Shown here piece after piece: positions 4,342-14,089 of a stretch of 64,000 nucleotides of DNA. The stretch comes from Minisyncoccota bacterium. GTDB lineage: Bacteria > Patescibacteriota > Microgenomatia > UBA1400 > PJMF01. A program made the translations under genes and the position numbers. Numbering within the stretch: position 1 is the first letter of the stretch; each line of letters opens with the position of its first letter. The notes beneath the pieces were generated by a model that ran no database searches, was not told the origin of the DNA, and was given only the letters and a program-made list of their open reading frames with translations. Location: positions 17,347 through 81,346 of the forward strand of contig PJMF01000016.1 of the NCBI GenBank assembly GCA_003173865.1. Reading direction: 5' to 3'.

Positions 4342-4779
4342 ATGAAAAATCCTCTTCTCATCACAGTCATTGTTGCTGTGCTGGTAGGTGTGGGCGCTTT
4401 CTTTGGAGGAATGAAGTACCAAGAAAGCAAAGCCGCTGCGAATCCTGGTAATGGCCAGTTCATGCGTGGTGGCAATGGTGGCCCAGGTGGACGTCGAGGT
4501 CAAGGTGGTGGACGTGTGGTTGGTGAAATTGTTACTCAAGATGACAAATCCATCACCGTCAAAATGATGGATGGAAGCAGCAAAATCGTACTAATTTCTG
4601 GCACGACAAATATCAATAAAGCAGCTGCTGCAACTCAAGCAGATCTTAAAGTTGGTGAACGCGTAGGCGTCTTTGGGAGTGATAACTCTGATGGAAGTGT
4701 CACCGCCCAAACGATTCAGCTAAATCCCATGGAGCGCGGTCCCCAAGGTGGACAATCTCCTTCGCCTGCTGCGAAGTAA
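4342..4779 (+). CDS. secreted Gly-rich protein, DUF5666-like
   Basis: Signal/TM anchor, a GGNGGPGG linker, and repeated segments (ITVKMMDGSSKIVLIS..., LKVGERVGVF..SDGSVTAQTI) resembling the DUF5666 fold. Confidence 0.5.
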   Translation: MKNPLLITVIVAVLVGVGAFFGGMKYQESKAAANPGNGQFMRGGNGGPGGRRGQGGGRVVGEIVTQDDKSITVKMMDGSSKIVLISGTTNINKAAAATQADLKVGERVGVFGSDNSDGSVTAQTIQLNPMERGPQGGQSPSPAAK

Positions 4780-4800
4780 AGAGTAGCGTATAATTGGCTC

Positions 4801-5844
4801 ATGTTTCGAGTAAAATTACTGCTAGTTGCTGGAGTAGGTGTGCTATTCAGTGCGTTTTTAGTAATCGCATTTCGTCAGCAGCTGCAAAATGCTTTTTTTG
4901 CGAACCTAAGCCGATTTGGAACTGCTCAGCTTCATTTACAAGTTGTGCAAGATGTCCCTCTGACGGGGACTGCATCTCGTTTTGATTATCAAGCAGTGGA
5001 TGCCGAGCATCATCGTCTCTATATTGCTCATGAAAATGATGACCGAGTGACTGTCGTTGATACGCAAGAACGCAGAGTCATTGGCGACGTCACGGATATC
5101 GCGTATCCACACGGAGTAATTTTGATTCCACAACTCAAAAGAGTGTACGCAACCGCCGAAGGAACGAATGAAGTTGTCGTCTTTGATGCGGAAACATTAA
5201 AAATACTCAATCGAGTGGCAATCGGCAAAATTCCTGATGGTTTGACGTATGATCCAAACTCAAATCAGATTTTTGTTTCAACTGAAGGTGAAGACGCGGT
5301 TTCGGTAATGAATGTGGCAACGAATAAATTTGTGACCAGAATTCCAGTTGGTAAGCGGGTAGGGAATTCGCACTATGATGATGTCTCTAAACACGTTTTT
5401 ACAACAGTAGGAAATGAAAATGCATTGGTTGAGATAGATCCTGTGCACAATCAAATGATTGGAAAGTATGATATGACTGGATGCGACCATCCGCACGGAT
5501 TTGCGATTGCGTCGTTCAATCATACGGCGTATGTAACATGTGAACACAATAACGTGATGCTCGTCTTCGATTTAAACTCGAAAAAAATTCTTCAAAAAGA
5601 GTCGGTAGGTTTCACACCAGATGTAGTGGATTTCGATCCAGGAACCAAAAAACTTTACGTGGGTTCGGAGAGTGGTATCGTGGCGATTTTCGAAGCCAGC
5701 GATACAGGCGTGAAAAAGTTAGGGTGGAACTTTCTTGTCCGGCATGCACATTCAGTTGCAGTGAACCCGATGACTCATGAACTCTACGTGCCCGTAGATG
5801 ACTTGGATGGAAAGCCCGCGCTGAGAATTTTCAAACCGCTATAA
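4801..5844 (+). CDS. YVTN/YncE-like beta-propeller repeat protein, membrane anchored
   Basis: N-terminal TM helix. Repeated roughly 40 aa units with YxTxxGxxxVxVxD signatures (YATAEGTNEVVVFDAETLK, IFVSTEGEDAVSVMNVATNK). Confidence 0.65.
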   Translation: MFRVKLLLVAGVGVLFSAFLVIAFRQQLQNAFFANLSRFGTAQLHLQVVQDVPLTGTASRFDYQAVDAEHHRLYIAHENDDRVTVVDTQERRVIGDVTDIAYPHGVILIPQLKRVYATAEGTNEVVVFDAETLKILNRVAIGKIPDGLTYDPNSNQIFVSTEGEDAVSVMNVATNKFVTRIPVGKRVGNSHYDDVSKHVFTTVGNENALVEIDPVHNQMIGKYDMTGCDHPHGFAIASFNHTAYVTCEHNNVMLVFDLNSKKILQKESVGFTPDVVDFDPGTKKLYVGSESGIVAIFEASDTGVKKLGWNFLVRHAHSVAVNPMTHELYVPVDDLDGKPALRIFKPL

Positions 5845-9369: not shown

Positions 9370-9574
9370 ATGCTTCCTATATAATAATTTTTATTCGAAA
9401 TATATTAATTTATAAACAAAATATAGTAAATAAGTAAAATACTATCCCGATTTCAGTTGGTGGTGGTTAAGCAATTTGTGTTTGAACTGACACTGATATG
9501 AAATCCTCATATCTCCTCAAGATAAGTTCTTCAAGTTCTGAACACATTTCACAAATGGGCTTCATCCTGATAAC

Positions 9575-10675
9575 CTAAAATTTCAAAAAGTTGCCAAAGT
9601 TGGCGTACCACGCATTGGGGCTGGTTTTTGACTTAAAAGTGGTGGGTGCACTCACAAACGCTTGCCAGCTAAATACGGACCGAGGTTTCCAGAGGGCTGG
9701 GCGTTTGGGTTTGACTGGAGCAATGGCCGGAATGCCAACAGGCACGACTACCACGTTTTCTGTACTTGGTGTCGCCGGTAGATTCTCCTCCAACTCTAAC
9801 GCAAAAGAACTGACTAAAGGAGTGGGCAGGGGTTTCTTCAGGACAGGACCAGTGATAAACGGACTGATGATCATGGGAGGTGTCACATTGCTTGGACTAT
9901 TTCCAGTTTGGTCACTGTTTTGCCCGTTGTCGGAGTTTGTTTGATCCGAGCTGTCGCTATTGTCAGGTGAGTTGGTAGTTTGATCACTTGAACCGGCAGA
10001 GCTCACGCTCGTGTCGATTGAGCCGGTATCTGAACTGCTGGTGTCGGTCGAGGTCGCACTGGTATCAGGTGTGGACGCTGAGGGATTTGTCGGTTGAACG
10101 GTTGGCGAAGGGCCGGGTGTGTCTTGAGAGGGTTCAGAAGGGTTCGGTGTCGCTGTTGGCGTAGCTGAAATCAACGGTAAAGAGGTTGGTGTGCTACTAG
10201 AATAGGGTGTGGCAGTTGGTAATGTAGATGGTTTGGGCGTGTTGCTGGGTTTGGGTGTCCCCGTTGAAGTGGGTGCTGGTGTCGGCGCCGATGTGGGTGG
10301 TGAAGTAGGTTTCGGTGTGCTAGTGACAGTCGGTAATGTAGATGGTTTGGGGGTGTTGCTAGGTTTGGGTGTCCCCGTTGAAGTTGGTGCTGGCTTTGGC
10401 GCCGATGTGGGTGGTGAAGTAGGTTTCGGTGTGCTAGTGACAGTTGATAATGTAGAGGGTTGGGGTGTGCTGCTAGGTTTGGGTGTCCCCGTTGAAGTGG
10501 GTGCTGGTGTCGGCGCCGATGTGGGTGGTGAAGTAGGCGCTGGCGTCGAAGAATTTGAAGGGTTTGGAGTAGGTGAGGTTGTTGTTGACCCCAAGATGTG
10601 AGTGGAAAACGTGGTTTGTTGAGCCTGAACAATCAGCGAAGTCGCAAAAAAGAAAAATAAAACGAGGCTGCGCAT
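9575..10675 (-). CDS. secreted Pro/Thr/Ser-rich (mucin-like) repeat protein
   Basis: Signal peptide MRSLVLFFFFATSLIVQAQQ. Three roughly 38 aa PT-rich repeats (TSPPTSAPTPAPTSTGTPKPS.TP.PSTL.TVTSTPKP), then an S/D/T-rich tract and a non-repetitive C-terminal domain. Confidence 0.7.
   Translation of the reverse strand: MRSLVLFFFFATSLIVQAQQTTFSTHILGSTTTSPTPNPSNSSTPAPTSPPTSAPTPAPTSTGTPKPSSTPQPSTLSTVTSTPKPTSPPTSAPKPAPTSTGTPKPSNTPKPSTLPTVTSTPKPTSPPTSAPTPAPTSTGTPKPSNTPKPSTLPTATPYSSSTPTSLPLISATPTATPNPSEPSQDTPGPSPTVQPTNPSASTPDTSATSTDTSSSDTGSIDTSVSSAGSSDQTTNSPDNSDSSDQTNSDNGQNSDQTGNSPSNVTPPMIISPFITGPVLKKPLPTPLVSSFALELEENLPATPSTENVVVVPVGIPAIAPVKPKRPALWKPRSVFSWQAFVSAPTTFKSKTSPNAWYANFGNFLKF
10214..10555. 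repeat. 3 x ~114 bp near-identical direct tandem repeats inside the PT-rich protein CDS
   Basis: The nucleotide unit gtaatgtagatggtttggg..gtgttgct.ggtttgggtgtccccgttgaagt.ggtgctgg... repeats three times with a few substitutions. Confidence 0.8.
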
Positions 10676-10744
10676 AGATTGAAATTCATTATGATCATCA
10701 CAACAATATTTAGCAAGTTTCTAAATAATGCTGATTTGTTGATC

Positions 10745-10773
10745 AAACACAACAAAACCCCGCTTGGGCAGGG
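10745..10773 (-). terminator. intrinsic terminator (minus strand): CCCUGC-CCAA-GCGGGG followed by UUUUGUUGUGUUU
   Basis: Hairpin with a 6 bp stem (one G.U pair) followed by a U-rich tract, 30 nt downstream of the micropeptide stop codon. Confidence 0.5.
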
Positions 10774-10802
10774 CTCTGTTTCAACGCTAATAACACACCA
10801 AA

Positions 10803-10892
10803 TTACTTGTGTTTGCTGGTCATTTTTCCAGGTTTCATGGTTTTGGCTTTGGGCGTCACTTTTTTGGTGATGTTTTTTTTCACGGTTGCCAT
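10803..10892 (-). CDS. unannotated 29 aa Lys-rich micropeptide (MATVKKNITKKVTPKAKTMKPGKMTSKHK)
   Basis: Not in the ORF track because it is under 60 aa. A strong SD (GAGGGGGTGA) sits 6 nt upstream of the ATG. An intrinsic terminator follows. It lies 31 nt after the ABC exporter stop. Confidence 0.5.
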   Translation of the reverse strand: MATVKKNITKKVTPKAKTMKPGKMTSKHK

Positions 10893-10923
10893 AATATATC
10901 ACCCCCTCTGGTACGAGTATTCT

Positions 10924-12666
10924 CTAATACTCATGTAGTATAAGGTTATAAAAGTTTGACTTTTTGCGCAAGTCCATATGTTTGCCGGTGTCGACAATCT
11001 TGCCTTTGTCTACTACAACCACCAGGTCAGCTTCGCTGATGACATCTAAAACATTGGAAACAATAATGGTAGTTTTGCCTTTGGTGACTTTGCCAATACT
11101 CTCCCAAATTTGTTGCCGGGTCCTCAGGTCGAGTGCCGACATCGGCTCGTCAAAAATATAAATCTGGGCATCTTTCAAAAACGCCCGAGCCAGCATCAAG
11201 CGTTGGCGCTGACCACCGGACAAGTAATTACCGCCATCCCCTACTCGAAAGTGGTAGCCACGAGGCAATCGTTCGATGAATGCATCTGCGCAGGCGAGGC
11301 GCGCGGCGTGGCGAACGTCTTCTTCGGTGCTGTCAGGTCGGCCAAACGTAATAATGTTGTAAATTGTATCGTTAAATAAGTTGCTATCCTGGGGTACGAG
11401 AGAAATATTTTGGCGAATGGTTTGGATATCGTACTCTTGTAACTGGTGTTCTCCGAGCAGCATTTTTCCGCAGCTTGGTTCATCAATCAGGCGTGGAATC
11501 AGTGACACGATCGATGACTTGCCGGAGCCGCTGACGCCAACGATTACCGACAGCTTGCCAGCGGGAAACTTGACTGAAATATCGCGCAAGATAGGCAAGC
11601 CTTCTTTGCTCAAGAGATTAACGTGTTCGAAATCAATAGTGGTATCAGTAACTTCCGTTAAGACGCCCGTATTTTTGGTTTGTGACTTGGCTTCAAAAAA
11701 ATCATTCATCCGTTCGACCTTGACGGCGTTTTCTTTAAATGTGGACACAGCGTAAATAATCGACAAAATGGGATTCGTTAAGTCATCGAGGTAAAAAATA
11801 AAAATGATGAGGAGACCAGTAGAAAGCTCATTGTTCATCACCAAAGACAAACCATAGCCAATAATCAATGAGTAGCTGACAGCAATCACTGCGCCGATAA
11901 ATAAACCAAGCAGTAAATTAAGTTTCTCCAGCTTCAAGTCATTCTCTAGCGACAGCCTCATCTTTTGTTTAAACTCAGTAAGTTCAGTTTTTTCGCGGGA
12001 AAACGCCTGGATAATCCGCAACTGCGACAGCGCTTCTTGAATAAATGAAAACACTGCGCTGTTCCAGCGCTCTGAGCGTTGGGTAGTGCTCACGATCCGC
12101 TTGTTAAAAAAATACAACCCAAACACCAAAAATGGCATTGCCATCAGCGATAAAATTGTCAGGTCAACATTAATGAAAAATAAAATGGACGTCATCGCGA
12201 GCACAAACAGCAGCGACGTAAAAATCGGCAAGATTCCCTCTTCGATCAGCGTGCCGAGTGCTAAGACATCATTTCCTAAGCGGTAGATATAGTCGCCAAT
12301 TTCTTGTGTTCGGTAAAAGCCAATATTCAGCTTTTGCAAACTCTCAAAAGCTGTTTGCGAGAATTGATAAATAATCGCAGTCGTGACCTTTTTAACACTC
12401 AAGGAGTACATGTACTGGACGATGTGCGACATCAGCATCACAAAGAAAAATATAAACACCACGAAAAAGCCAAATGTCATTTTGTTATGGAAAAAATTTA
12501 CAAATGGAATAGGATCATCACCGAGTACGTTGTCAATCAGGTATTTAAACGGGAGCGGCGAGATTGCTTCAAACACAGTGGTCGCCATCATCAACACAAA
12601 GACCAAAAACAGACGAGGTATCTGTGGGCGAAGGTCTCTCAGCAGAACTCTATTAACAGTTTTCAT
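10924..12666 (-). CDS. ABC exporter, fused permease + ATPase (MsbA/type I exporter family)
   Basis: Six N-terminal TM helices. Walker A GVSGSGKSS, signature LSGGQRQRLMLARAF, Walker B IYIFDEPMSALD. Confidence 0.85.
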   Translation of the reverse strand: MKTVNRVLLRDLRPQIPRLFLVFVLMMATTVFEAISPLPFKYLIDNVLGDDPIPFVNFFHNKMTFGFFVVFIFFFVMLMSHIVQYMYSLSVKKVTTAIIYQFSQTAFESLQKLNIGFYRTQEIGDYIYRLGNDVLALGTLIEEGILPIFTSLLFVLAMTSILFFINVDLTILSLMAMPFLVFGLYFFNKRIVSTTQRSERWNSAVFSFIQEALSQLRIIQAFSREKTELTEFKQKMRLSLENDLKLEKLNLLLGLFIGAVIAVSYSLIIGYGLSLVMNNELSTGLLIIFIFYLDDLTNPILSIIYAVSTFKENAVKVERMNDFFEAKSQTKNTGVLTEVTDTTIDFEHVNLLSKEGLPILRDISVKFPAGKLSVIVGVSGSGKSSIVSLIPRLIDEPSCGKMLLGEHQLQEYDIQTIRQNISLVPQDSNLFNDTIYNIITFGRPDSTEEDVRHAARLACADAFIERLPRGYHFRVGDGGNYLSGGQRQRLMLARAFLKDAQIYIFDEPMSALDLRTRQQIWESIGKVTKGKTTIIVSNVLDVISEADLVVVVDKGKIVDTGKHMDLRKKSNFYNLILHEY

Positions 12667-12844
12667 GGGTCAGGACCGGTCTATATTTTAGCCTAAGCTT
12701 CACGCTAGGGTTTAGCTCCGCTGCAGCTTGGTTGGACAAACAAAAATTCTTCGTGTAAGAGCATACGGTGTCTACAAGGGCTTTGCAAGAGTACATTGAA
12801 GAATTGTTTGCGGGTAAAAGTGCGCCTCTAGTATAATAATCAGA

Positions 12845-14089
12845 ATGAAACTCCACATCGCGATGATCTCTTTTCACACGTGTCCTCTTGCGTCGCAAGA
12901 AGGCAAAGAAACAGGTGGAATGAATGTCTACGTGCTCGAGTTATCGAAAGAACTCGCGCATGAGGGTCACATAGTGGATATTTTTACTAGAAGTCAGGAT
13001 GTCGACAATCCAGAAATTGTAAATGTTACTGAAGGTCTGCGAGTGATCCATCTCAAAGCCGGTCCGCAGACAAATGTTTCCAAAAAACAACTGGGAAATT
13101 ATCTGCATGAGTTTGAAGAACAGATGGTTCAGTTTATCGATACTCACCACGTGCGGTATGACGTATTGCACTGCCACTATTATTACTCTGGTCTCATTGG
13201 TCTTGAGCTCCAAAAACGACTGCCAACTCCGCTGCCAATCGTGATGATGTTTCACACGTTAGCGCTAATGAAAAATTTAGTTGCACGAACTGAAGCAGAA
13301 AAAGAAAATAGTGAGCGGGTCGATGCAGAGTTTTTATTAACGAAGAAAGTTCAAAAAATTATTGTGCCAAGTGAAAACGAAATGAAGTATTACCAGTACT
13401 TGTATGGTGTGCAGCAAAATCGATTAGCTGTGATTCCACCAGGGGTGGATGTGCACCTTTTTCACCCAATGTCCAAAAAAACGGCAAAGCAAGTAATTGG
13501 TGCTGATGAAGATCACAAAATTATTTTATTTGTCGGCAGAATTGAACCATTGAAAGGAATTGATGGATTAATTTATTCGATGAAAATTCTGACGCAAAAA
13601 CATCCGAACTGTCAAATCTGTTTGTGGATCGTGGGCGGTGATATTTCGCAAAAACAAGATCGGTGGTCGGCTGAACTACAAAAAATTGAGGAACTCAGAA
13701 GTCTACTGCACATTCCGACCGTAGTGAAGTTAGTTGGTCAGCGGCCACAAATCGAACTGCCGTATTACTACAATAGTGCGGAAGTAGTGGTGATGCCGTC
13801 ACACTATGAATCTTTTGGTATGGCTGCAGCTGAAGCAATGGCGTGTGGAGTGCCGGTGATTACCACGAATGTAACAGGAATCTCCAGCTTATTTGATGAA
13901 CGGCACAAGTCACTGATTACTTCGGTGAATAATCCTTTACTGCTTGCATCACAAATTGAGCATGTGCTGATGAATACCAAAGCGCATGCCGATATAAGTG
14001 TCGAAGTGCAGAAAAAAATTCAAGATTTAGCATGGCCGGAAGTTGCCCAACAGATCGTGCATGTGTATCGTGAAGTGATAGACTTCTAA
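12845..14089 (+). CDS. GT4 retaining glycosyltransferase, MshA/BshA-like (also resembles sugar-phosphate synthases)
   Basis: N-terminus MISFHTCPL...GGMNVYVLELSKELAHEGHIVDIFTR closely parallels the MshA N-terminus (MIS.HTSPL..GGMNVY). C-terminal GT-B E..E motif region (VVMPSHYESFGMAAAEAMACGVPVI). Confidence 0.8.
   Translation: MKLHIAMISFHTCPLASQEGKETGGMNVYVLELSKELAHEGHIVDIFTRSQDVDNPEIVNVTEGLRVIHLKAGPQTNVSKKQLGNYLHEFEEQMVQFIDTHHVRYDVLHCHYYYSGLIGLELQKRLPTPLPIVMMFHTLALMKNLVARTEAEKENSERVDAEFLLTKKVQKIIVPSENEMKYYQYLYGVQQNRLAVIPPGVDVHLFHPMSKKTAKQVIGADEDHKIILFVGRIEPLKGIDGLIYSMKILTQKHPNCQICLWIVGGDISQKQDRWSAELQKIEELRSLLHIPTVVKLVGQRPQIELPYYYNSAEVVVMPSHYESFGMAAAEAMACGVPVITTNVTGISSLFDERHKSLITSVNNPLLLASQIEHVLMNTKAHADISVEVQKKIQDLAWPEVAQQIVHVYREVIDF

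Follow-up and report, generated by a model that had tools for sequence, protein, structure and literature searches.

The locus and its signals

The window analyzed here is a stretch of 64,000 nucleotides (nt) from a Minisyncoccota bacterium (GenBank assembly GCA_003173865.1, contig PJMF01000016.1, positions 17,347 to 81,346). It encodes an ATP-binding cassette (ABC) half-transporter, referred to below as the exporter, followed by a micro-gene for a lysine-rich peptide, an intrinsic terminator and a gene for a proline/threonine-rich (PT-rich) protein (Table 1). Coordinates are positions of this window unless a relative is named, and the minus strand carries all features of the exporter and the micro-gene. 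An initial annotation of the sequence had described a clean small gene in this place, consisting of a Shine-Dalgarno (SD) sequence, an ATG, 29 codons of which ten specify lysine, a stop codon and a hairpin with a U-tract. All of these elements are present, albeit on the minus strand. The encoded peptide of 29 amino acids (aa) lacks Asp and Glu and has a net charge of +10, an isoelectric point (pI) of about 11 and a grand average of hydropathy (GRAVY) of -1.08; neither the h-region of a signal peptide nor a double-glycine motif was found in it.

Table 1. Features of the exporter/micro-gene locus in the window and tiny genes next to the exporter in related lineages (L numbers denote relatives, with the identity of their exporter to that of the window; SD, Shine-Dalgarno sequence; ORF, open reading frame; MFE, minimum free energy; positions in rows with an L number are those of that locus).
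Locus	Feature	Position	Strand	Remarks
Window	ABC half-transporter ORF, 580 aa	10924-12666	-	Pfam ABC_membrane PF00664 and ABC_tran PF00005; six-transmembrane domain and ATPase
Window	Exporter stop codon TAG	10926-10924	-	
Window	9-bp hairpin AUGAGUAUU-AGAG-AAUACUCGU across the exporter stop codon	10913-10934	-	Sequence reading; in MFE and centroid fold of 10740-10960(-)
Window	Extended SD AGAGGGGGTGAT	10909-10898	-	Near-perfect; core ends 9 nt ahead of the ATG
Window	Micro-gene MATVKKNITKKVTPKAKTMKPGKMTSKHK, 29 aa	10803-10892	-	ATG at 10892, TAA at 10805-10803; type A family member
Window	Intrinsic terminator	10741-10780 (stem-loop 10780-10751)	-	13-bp G+C-rich stem, core CCCUGC-CCAA-GCGGGG, U-rich tail
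Window	Promoter-like site TTGCTA-17-CATAAT of the next gene	10688-10716	-	Consensus match only
Window	PT-rich protein with signal-like N-terminal segment	9575-10675	-	ORF; 2.9 copies of a 114-nt tandem repeat (10209-10537, 91% matches)
L041 (P0002, 59%)	MPAKKKAVKRKATVKRRTPARSRAR, then MAGTPVRRPGKTVKAPVRKAVRSSAKRKGK, then PT-rich protein	2141-2863 (PT-rich)		
L038 (P0003, 58%)	MAKKVAKKRTPARRPAKKAAKKR, then MPAKKKKTAAKKKTKKAKKRK			Own terminator for each
L122 (P0004, 55%)	MATTKKTVKKMVIKKAAVKAPGKTVKKIMKTR, then PT-rich protein	from about 5020 (PT-rich)		
L123 (P0006, 55%)	MMGKSNSRPDSKPRPVTPKPPQGFGRVRVSTPKKGK, then MAAKKSTKKAVKKAAPKGIKLPGKKVISKKR	4785-4895 (type B)		
L125 (P0007, 55%)	MANKKGGSSAPKLGRVRVSSSAPKAPKPKK, then MAVKRTVAKKAVKRVVKKKRPGAR	4814-4906 (type B)		MAVKRTVAKKAVKRVVKKKRPGAR on the opposite strand
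L126 (P0009, 53%)	40-aa GRVRV peptide, then MATKKTVSKKTTAKKPAAKPLVKRPAKKKNFLGW	4780-4902 (type B)		
L128 (P0020, 51%)	35-aa GRVRV peptide, then MAIKRTVKTAPKKKPSVAKKSVIHTPARRKKR	4789-4896 (type B)		
L042 (51%)	MALTKRPASRPKAVAKKLVKKVGKRK			
L129 (P0069, 46%)	Beta-lactamase-like gene, then MAAKKKAVKPKAKPKAIKRPGKR			
L131 (P0108, 44%)	Beta-lactamase-like gene, then MPSKKRKAAPKAKAKKTMKKKKR			

The SD of the micro-gene represents its most conspicuous signal. With a duplex energy of -18.3 kcal/mol against the anti-SD, it is the strongest among 56 genes of the window, for which the second best value is -13.2 and the median about -3.5 kcal/mol, so that the contrast with the weak SDs of other genes that had been pointed out initially was borne out. 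The exporter itself starts essentially without an SD (duplex of only -3.5 kcal/mol). Set against this start, the near-perfect SD of the micro-gene points to the synthesis of many peptides for each exporter. Most other genes of the window are essentially devoid of an SD as well, including the ribosomal protein genes at 62009-63393, and in many a TATAAT-like box precedes the ATG by 6-14 nt (examples are the starts at 12845(+), 4801(+), 15561(+) and 19655(-)), which suggests that leaderless or SD-independent initiation is widespread in this Patescibacteria genome. Because the organism thus seems to rely little on SD sequences, the micro-gene stands out.

To obtain a chance expectation, 64-kb windows were simulated with a Markov model and searched for ORFs that start with ATG, comprise 20-50 aa with at least 30% Lys plus Arg and no Asp or Glu, and are preceded by a 6-nt SD core. 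Such ORFs are expected 0.01 times per 64-kb window; a single one was observed in the actual window, namely the micro-ORF. Judged by these signals and by its retention in relatives described below, the predicted ORF of 29 codons qualifies as a real micro-gene that is conserved and codes for a protein.

The intrinsic terminator behind the micro-gene is the top-ranked terminator-like site in the region 9400-13000. Its centroid hairpin has an energy of -19.7 kcal/mol, the MFE of the 71-nt segment is -22.5 kcal/mol (z = -3.3) and none of 200 shuffled sequences was as stable. The gap between the exporter stop codon and the micro-ORF measures 31 nt, and since a scan of 9400-13000 revealed no terminator between the two genes, they are predicted to be co-transcribed, in agreement with the initial annotation. 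The micro-gene is then the last cistron of a putative two-gene transcript that comprises exporter, micro-gene and terminator. The 221-nt segment that covers the 3' end of the exporter gene and the micro-gene folds at z = -3.8, with the coding region pairing partly with the 3' untranslated region (UTR). The 9-bp hairpin across the exporter stop codon is not followed by a U-tract and is therefore no terminator; it possibly serves as an mRNA processing or stability element. Downstream, the promoter-like site of the next gene marks the 3' boundary of the exporter/micro-gene module.

The exporter

Pfam searches of the exporter returned ABC_membrane and ABC_tran only, and a C39 peptidase domain was not found. 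In comparisons with solved structures, eukaryotic ABCB proteins are closest, with E-values down to 1e-113. Among bacterial structures, Sav1866 matches best (9.5e-86 over the full length), TmrAB takes a middle rank (3e-65) and the match to MsbA is weaker (1e-60). The exporter had been introduced as MsbA-type. This term is acceptable as a label for the fold and does not hold for the closest identity, given that Sav1866 scores 1e-85 against 1e-60 for MsbA; the sequence comparisons place the protein as a generic ABCB/Sav1866-like half-transporter. It shares the ABC_membrane plus ABC_tran architecture and the length of the Sav1866/ABCB (type IV) multidrug and lipid half-transporters, including MsbA, and differs from them in belonging to a Patescibacteria-specific clade that is distinguished by the attached micro-gene. 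Patescibacteria are generally regarded as lacking lipopolysaccharide.

The exporter family is large in the Candidate Phyla Radiation (CPR), and the best 120 listed clusters are 42-59% identical to the exporter of the window. Homologs of both the exporter and ribosomal protein S12 carry names of Patescibacteria, Levybacteria, Woesebacteria, Pacebacteria or Doudnabacteria, which assigns the window to a CPR/Patescibacteria genome, probably one of the Microgenomates side. Scanning genome contigs with the exporter yielded relatives of at most 30% identity only.

Conservation of the micro-gene next to the exporter

Thirteen independent exporter lineages, the window included and all of them Patescibacteria/CPR, were compared by reading the DNA after each exporter stop codon. 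The loci stem mainly from contigs encoding exporter homologs, and a metagenome scan added at least two full-length close loci (L042 and L043) and a truncated third one (L044). A lack of conservation beside the exporter in relatives had been set beforehand as one observation that would refute the gene, and the loci clearly show otherwise. A micro-gene was found directly downstream of the exporter in 11 of the 13 lineages, either as a single tiny ORF or as a pair of them (21-40 aa each); the exporters of these lineages are 44-59% identical to that of the window (Table 1). The distance between the exporter stop codon and the micro-gene amounts to 15-36 nt; in two lineages, the micro-gene comes after an inserted beta-lactamase-like gene. 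Loci around distant ABC transporters, about 700 kb in total, contained no comparable ORFs. Other neighbors vary from locus to locus and include genes for YdjC, a polysaccharide deacetylase, an NHL-repeat protein, 5-formyltetrahydrofolate cyclo-ligase, Fic and other proteins. Since these flanking genes differ, the exporter and the micro-gene constitute the conserved unit. In some loci the type A micro-gene (see below) has a promoter-like site of its own, and one locus carries it on the opposite strand, yet it still adjoins the exporter.

The translation signal is conserved as well. In an alignment of ten lineages, the SD block GG(A/G)GGTG is invariant and its flanks have diverged. The median duplex energy of micro-gene SDs in relatives is -17 kcal/mol, compared with -2.4 kcal/mol for 49 ordinary genes (Mann-Whitney p = 4e-7). 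The only one of these 49 genes with a perfect SD (AAAGGAGGTGA, -17.8 kcal/mol) is located at 6146-6388 of L128 and encodes an 80-aa methionine-rich protein with one transmembrane helix and no Pfam match.

Gene finders leave most of the micro-genes uncalled. A collection of 15 billion proteins does not contain the window peptide, which is hence uncalled in the source record as well; the peptides of three relatives are present in the collection without a name. At 5745-6140 of L038 (also in L039 and L040), a public call of a 131-aa ORF in another frame spans two micro-genes that each have an SD and a terminator of their own. The call looks spurious and shows how annotation can hide the micro-gene family.

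Composition and types of the peptides

Seventeen peptides were available for comparison. Their net charge ranges from +9 to +13 with none or one acidic residue, pI values are 11-12, GRAVY lies between -0.4 and -2.2, the number of prolines varies from one to seven and none of them contains a hydrophobic segment. Two types can be distinguished. Type A is Lys-rich with the pattern MA(T/A)KK...PGK, and its members in the window, L122 and L123 share MA-(T)-KK...K-PGK; the orthologs nearest to the window peptide are those of L122 (MATTKKTVKKMVIKKAAVKAPGKTVKKIMKTR) and L123 (MAAKKSTKKAVKKAAPKGIKLPGKKVISKKR). Type B comprises peptides of 30-40 aa that are rich in Ser, Pro and Arg, share only the motif GRVRV and are preceded by equally perfect SDs. 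It was found between the exporter stop codon and the type A gene in four lineages (Table 1) and is not present in the window. Overall, conservation of the peptide sequence is weak, and peptides are barely alignable even between loci whose exporters are 55-59% identical.

Database comparisons gave little additional information. Pfam and NCBIfam scans of five peptides returned a meaningless match to Cupiennin (E = 0.11) and nothing else, and sequence searches against the PDB found no match. Neither ribosomal protein family models nor chains of solved ribosomes were matched at E <= 10 when single sequences and a profile were compared with NCBIfam, Pfam and PDB entries. The 40-aa type B peptide has no words in common with any protein in the protein database searched. 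A profile of three type A peptides retrieved only its own two database members from 1.84 billion representative sequences, as a low-complexity profile of 30 positions cannot reach significance. Rfam searches, performed for the window at gathering thresholds and for 10600-11000 at relaxed thresholds, detected nothing near threshold. In the literature on small basic proteins of CPR or on exporters of cationic peptides, nothing specific was found.

Amphipathicity was assessed by comparing the helical hydrophobic moment of each peptide with that of shuffled sequences. The fraction of shuffles that equal or exceed the peptide is 0.03-0.78 across the family and 0.195 for the window peptide, i.e. the moments are not above those of shuffles; the same test yields fractions of at most 0.013 for magainin, cecropin and LL-37. 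The charge and hydrophilicity of these sequences, rather than a fold or an amphipathic face, thus appear to be under selection. An AlphaFold2 model of the L122 ortholog presents a low-confidence helix-PG-helix arrangement, whose predicted local distance difference test score of 69 and predicted template modeling score of 0.25 do not make it evidence of a fold.

Possible functions of the exporter/micro-gene pair

The retention of the pair in relatives points to a previously undescribed module of exporter and peptide. The reading that we tentatively favor, with a probability of about 0.4, is that the micro-gene specifies a leaderless, disordered polycation that is made in excess and exported by the adjoining transporter; the export is proposed on the grounds of gene linkage only. 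The peptides would be overproduced in the cytoplasm, and the ABC homodimer would move them out in intact form, with no signal peptide, double-glycine leader or peptidase domain involved. Export would also shield the producer's own ribosomes and DNA from the peptides. Outside the cell, they would act by charge on polyanionic targets such as envelope polymers of the producer or a host, membranes or nucleic acids. Cargo plus exporter is the simplest reading of a conserved unit of a transporter and an abundant tiny peptide. With its varying copy number and two types of peptide for a single exporter, the arrangement is reminiscent of bacteriocin loci that encode several peptides. Translocation of this kind is physically plausible: TAP, TAPL and TmrAB are type IV ABC exporters that move unmodified, leaderless, hydrophilic peptides of tens of residues, although these transporters are not known to have a genetically linked, dedicated cargo.

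Leaderless bacteriocins provide a close parallel for such a system. In LmrB/LsbB and aureocin A70, for example, an ABC transporter both secretes leaderless cationic peptides and provides immunity (PMC6131525). The class IId loci of aureocin A70 (AurA-D, 30-31 aa) and LsbB/LmrB likewise encode unmodified cationic leaderless peptides of about 30 aa, with a single peptide gene or several of them next to the ABC transporter for secretion and self-protection (PMC6131525), and their peptide sequences evolve fast as well. The differences are nevertheless considerable, and several of them weigh against export. The peptides described here are far more hydrophilic and charged than any leaderless bacteriocin listed in that paper, where GRAVY values of about -0.1 to +0.7, often with a high Trp content, contrast with -0.4 to -2.2, and charges of +4 to +7 contrast with +9 to +13 (PMC6131525). 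Almost all of them lack Trp and other aromatic residues, and they are no more amphipathic in arrangement than shuffled controls. The loci contain no recognizable immunity or accessory genes, the exporter comes first and the peptide last, which is not the usual order of bacteriocin genes, and the hosts are Patescibacteria and not Bacillota. Comparison with solved structures revealed nothing peptide-specific in the exporter sequence, and the exporter lacks a nearby micro-gene in L132 (P0058, 49%) and L043 (43%). In L132, a Levybacteria locus, a 310-nt spacer without a micro-gene (4774-5082) is followed by a Fic-domain gene; the signature motif of this exporter reads LSLGQ in place of LSGGQ. Furthermore, the composition of the peptides is like that of the tiny ribosomal proteins bL37, bS22 and bTHX, and to our knowledge there is no precedent for an exported, purely hydrophilic, ribosomally synthesized polycation in bacteria. 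The initial annotation had proposed an exported antimicrobial, a surface-binding peptide or a nucleic-acid-binding protein; gene linkage favors the export component of this proposal, whereas the physicochemical properties are unlike those of exported bacteriocins and resemble those of tiny ribosomal proteins. Two more specific versions of export were rejected. A classical amphipathic, pore-forming antimicrobial or bacteriocin disagrees with the hydrophilic character of the peptides and with moments that are not above shuffles, and a peptidase-containing ABC transporter with double-glycine cargo disagrees with an exporter that has no C39 domain and a peptide that has no double-glycine leader.

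The resemblance to ribosomal proteins forms the basis of the main alternative interpretation, which we consider possible, though on the unlikely side: the peptide would remain in the cytoplasm and bind ribosomes or nucleic acids, either as a tiny protein within or attached to the ribosome that is specific to the lineage and comparable to bL37, bS22 and bTHX, perhaps gating the anti-SD and autoregulating via its own SD like bS21/rpsU of Flavobacteriia, or as a nucleoid condenser for ultra-small cells that resembles protamines or H1 tails. Linkage to the exporter would then reflect co-regulation, as for rpmF-plsX and rpmH-yidC, and several small ribosomal protein genes are indeed conserved beside membrane-biogenesis genes. 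Length, Lys/Arg content, net charge and GRAVY match bL37, bS22 and bTHX and not bacteriocins; these proteins comprise 21-34 aa with 35-60% Lys/Arg and are very hydrophilic and highly expressed. The strong expression signals of the micro-genes, which include own promoter-like sites and terminators in relatives, and the lack of a membrane-active signature in the amphipathicity test agree with this interpretation. An outstanding near-perfect SD in SD-poor genomes also has a parallel in Flavobacterium johnsoniae and other Flavobacteriia, where rpsU (bS21) is the one gene with a strong SD and is autoregulated via anti-SD availability (PMC13000453, PMC9976891, PMC7797042). The protamine/H1-tail-like nucleoid proteins Hc1/Hc2 of Chlamydia and ScvA of Coxiella are Lys/Ala/Pro-rich, acid-free, disordered polycations as well, in which composition is kept over sequence; no homology to them was detected, most exceed the micro-proteins in size and none is known to be encoded with an exporter. 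However, the peptides are conserved much more poorly than the exporter, and their occurrence in one or two copies, as two unrelated types and once with a flipped strand is untypical of ribosomal proteins. No ribosomal protein model of NCBIfam, Pfam or PDB is matched, and a tie to an ABC exporter is not known for tiny ribosomal proteins. The adjacency is retained where the micro-gene is transcribed separately, which co-regulation does not explain. Moreover, the non-basic small membrane protein of L128 with its perfect SD indicates that strong SDs are not unique to proteins that gate the anti-SD.

Conserved operon linkage would also suit a partner of the exporter that is not its cargo. Such a peptide could act at the membrane or envelope and modulate transport by binding to the ATPase domains or to anionic lipid head groups, or it could neutralize or chaperone an anionic glycolipid or glycopolymer flipped by a Sav1866/PglK-like transporter. 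Genes related to the envelope or to glycans are frequent neighbors, such as those for a glycosyltransferase of family 4 (GT4) and acyltransferase_3 in the window and for polysaccharide deacetylase, YdjC and beta-lactamase-like proteins in relatives, and PT-rich or NHL-repeat proteins, which are presumed surface proteins, are encoded nearby. These envelope-related neighbors are not conserved between loci, though, and a stoichiometric subunit is hard to reconcile with the extreme translational excess over the exporter. Small proteins that are known to regulate transporters are hydrophobic membrane peptides, and the peptides described here differ from them in lacking any hydrophobic segment. Hence, we judge an accessory role improbable, and the version in which the peptide is a stoichiometric exporter subunit was rejected based on the grossly unequal translation signals and the missing hydrophobic segment. 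Least credible of all is that no functional protein is made and that the ORF is incidental to an A-rich 3' UTR, a small RNA or a terminator region, or acts as a lysine-sensing leader or attenuator for the downstream gene. The transcript segment is more stable than shuffles (z = -3.8, see above), the terminator directly follows the ORF as in attenuators and the ORF is rich in AAA lysine codons. Yet the SD, the ATG, a frame of 21-40 codons and a basic, acid-free composition are kept in 11 lineages despite nucleotide divergence, no Rfam family comes near threshold and the chance expectation is as low as 0.01 per window. The gene downstream of the micro-gene is unrelated or convergent in relatives (e.g. 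the NHL gene on the opposite strand in L123 and L126), and therefore the terminator cannot be the attenuator of a conserved target. An attenuator or leader peptide was rejected on these grounds, together with the own promoter-like site of the next gene in the window.

If the polycations are indeed exported, they would represent a new type of secreted molecule and provide a cargo for an orphan exporter family. A farther-reaching proposal, which we regard as rather doubtful, is a widespread, hitherto unannotated CPR module in which a Sav1866-like half-transporter exports leaderless, intrinsically disordered polycations of types A and B as a new class of ribosomally synthesized, secreted effectors that act by charge and not as amphipathic pores. 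Ultra-small, host-dependent cells could use them to bind or permeabilize the envelope of a partner or to capture extracellular nucleic acids. Should the peptides bind ribosomes or DNA instead, they would constitute a lineage-specific part of the reduced translation or nucleoid machinery of CPR, and a lone strong-SD gene would thereby be documented for a second SD-poor lineage. In either case, the micro-gene presents the strongest translation signal of its neighborhood and is the only conserved partner of an exporter family that is spread across Patescibacteria, a group with barely explored surface biology and host interactions, and it belongs to a size class (under 30 codons) that is systematically missed by annotation.

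Neighboring genes

The PT-rich protein encoded after the terminator has no Pfam match. PT-rich proteins of similar composition follow the micro-gene in L041 and L122 (Table 1), and orthology of these neighbors was not demonstrable, as the BLASTP match (E = 0.19) is not significant. The PT-rich protein is thus regarded as context and not demonstrably as a part of the module. GT4 glycosyltransferase and acyltransferase_3 genes were identified in the window through Pfam.

In relatives, two further neighbors recur within subclades. A protein of about 780-845 aa with faint matches to NHL repeats is encoded in L123 (5198-7639), L125 (485-2824), L126 (5195-7732) and L128 (451-2919), and a Beta-lactamase2/penicillin-binding protein-like protein in L129 (4794-5798), L131 (4797-5804) and L132 (6516-7487). 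Their recurrence is a hint of an envelope-related context.

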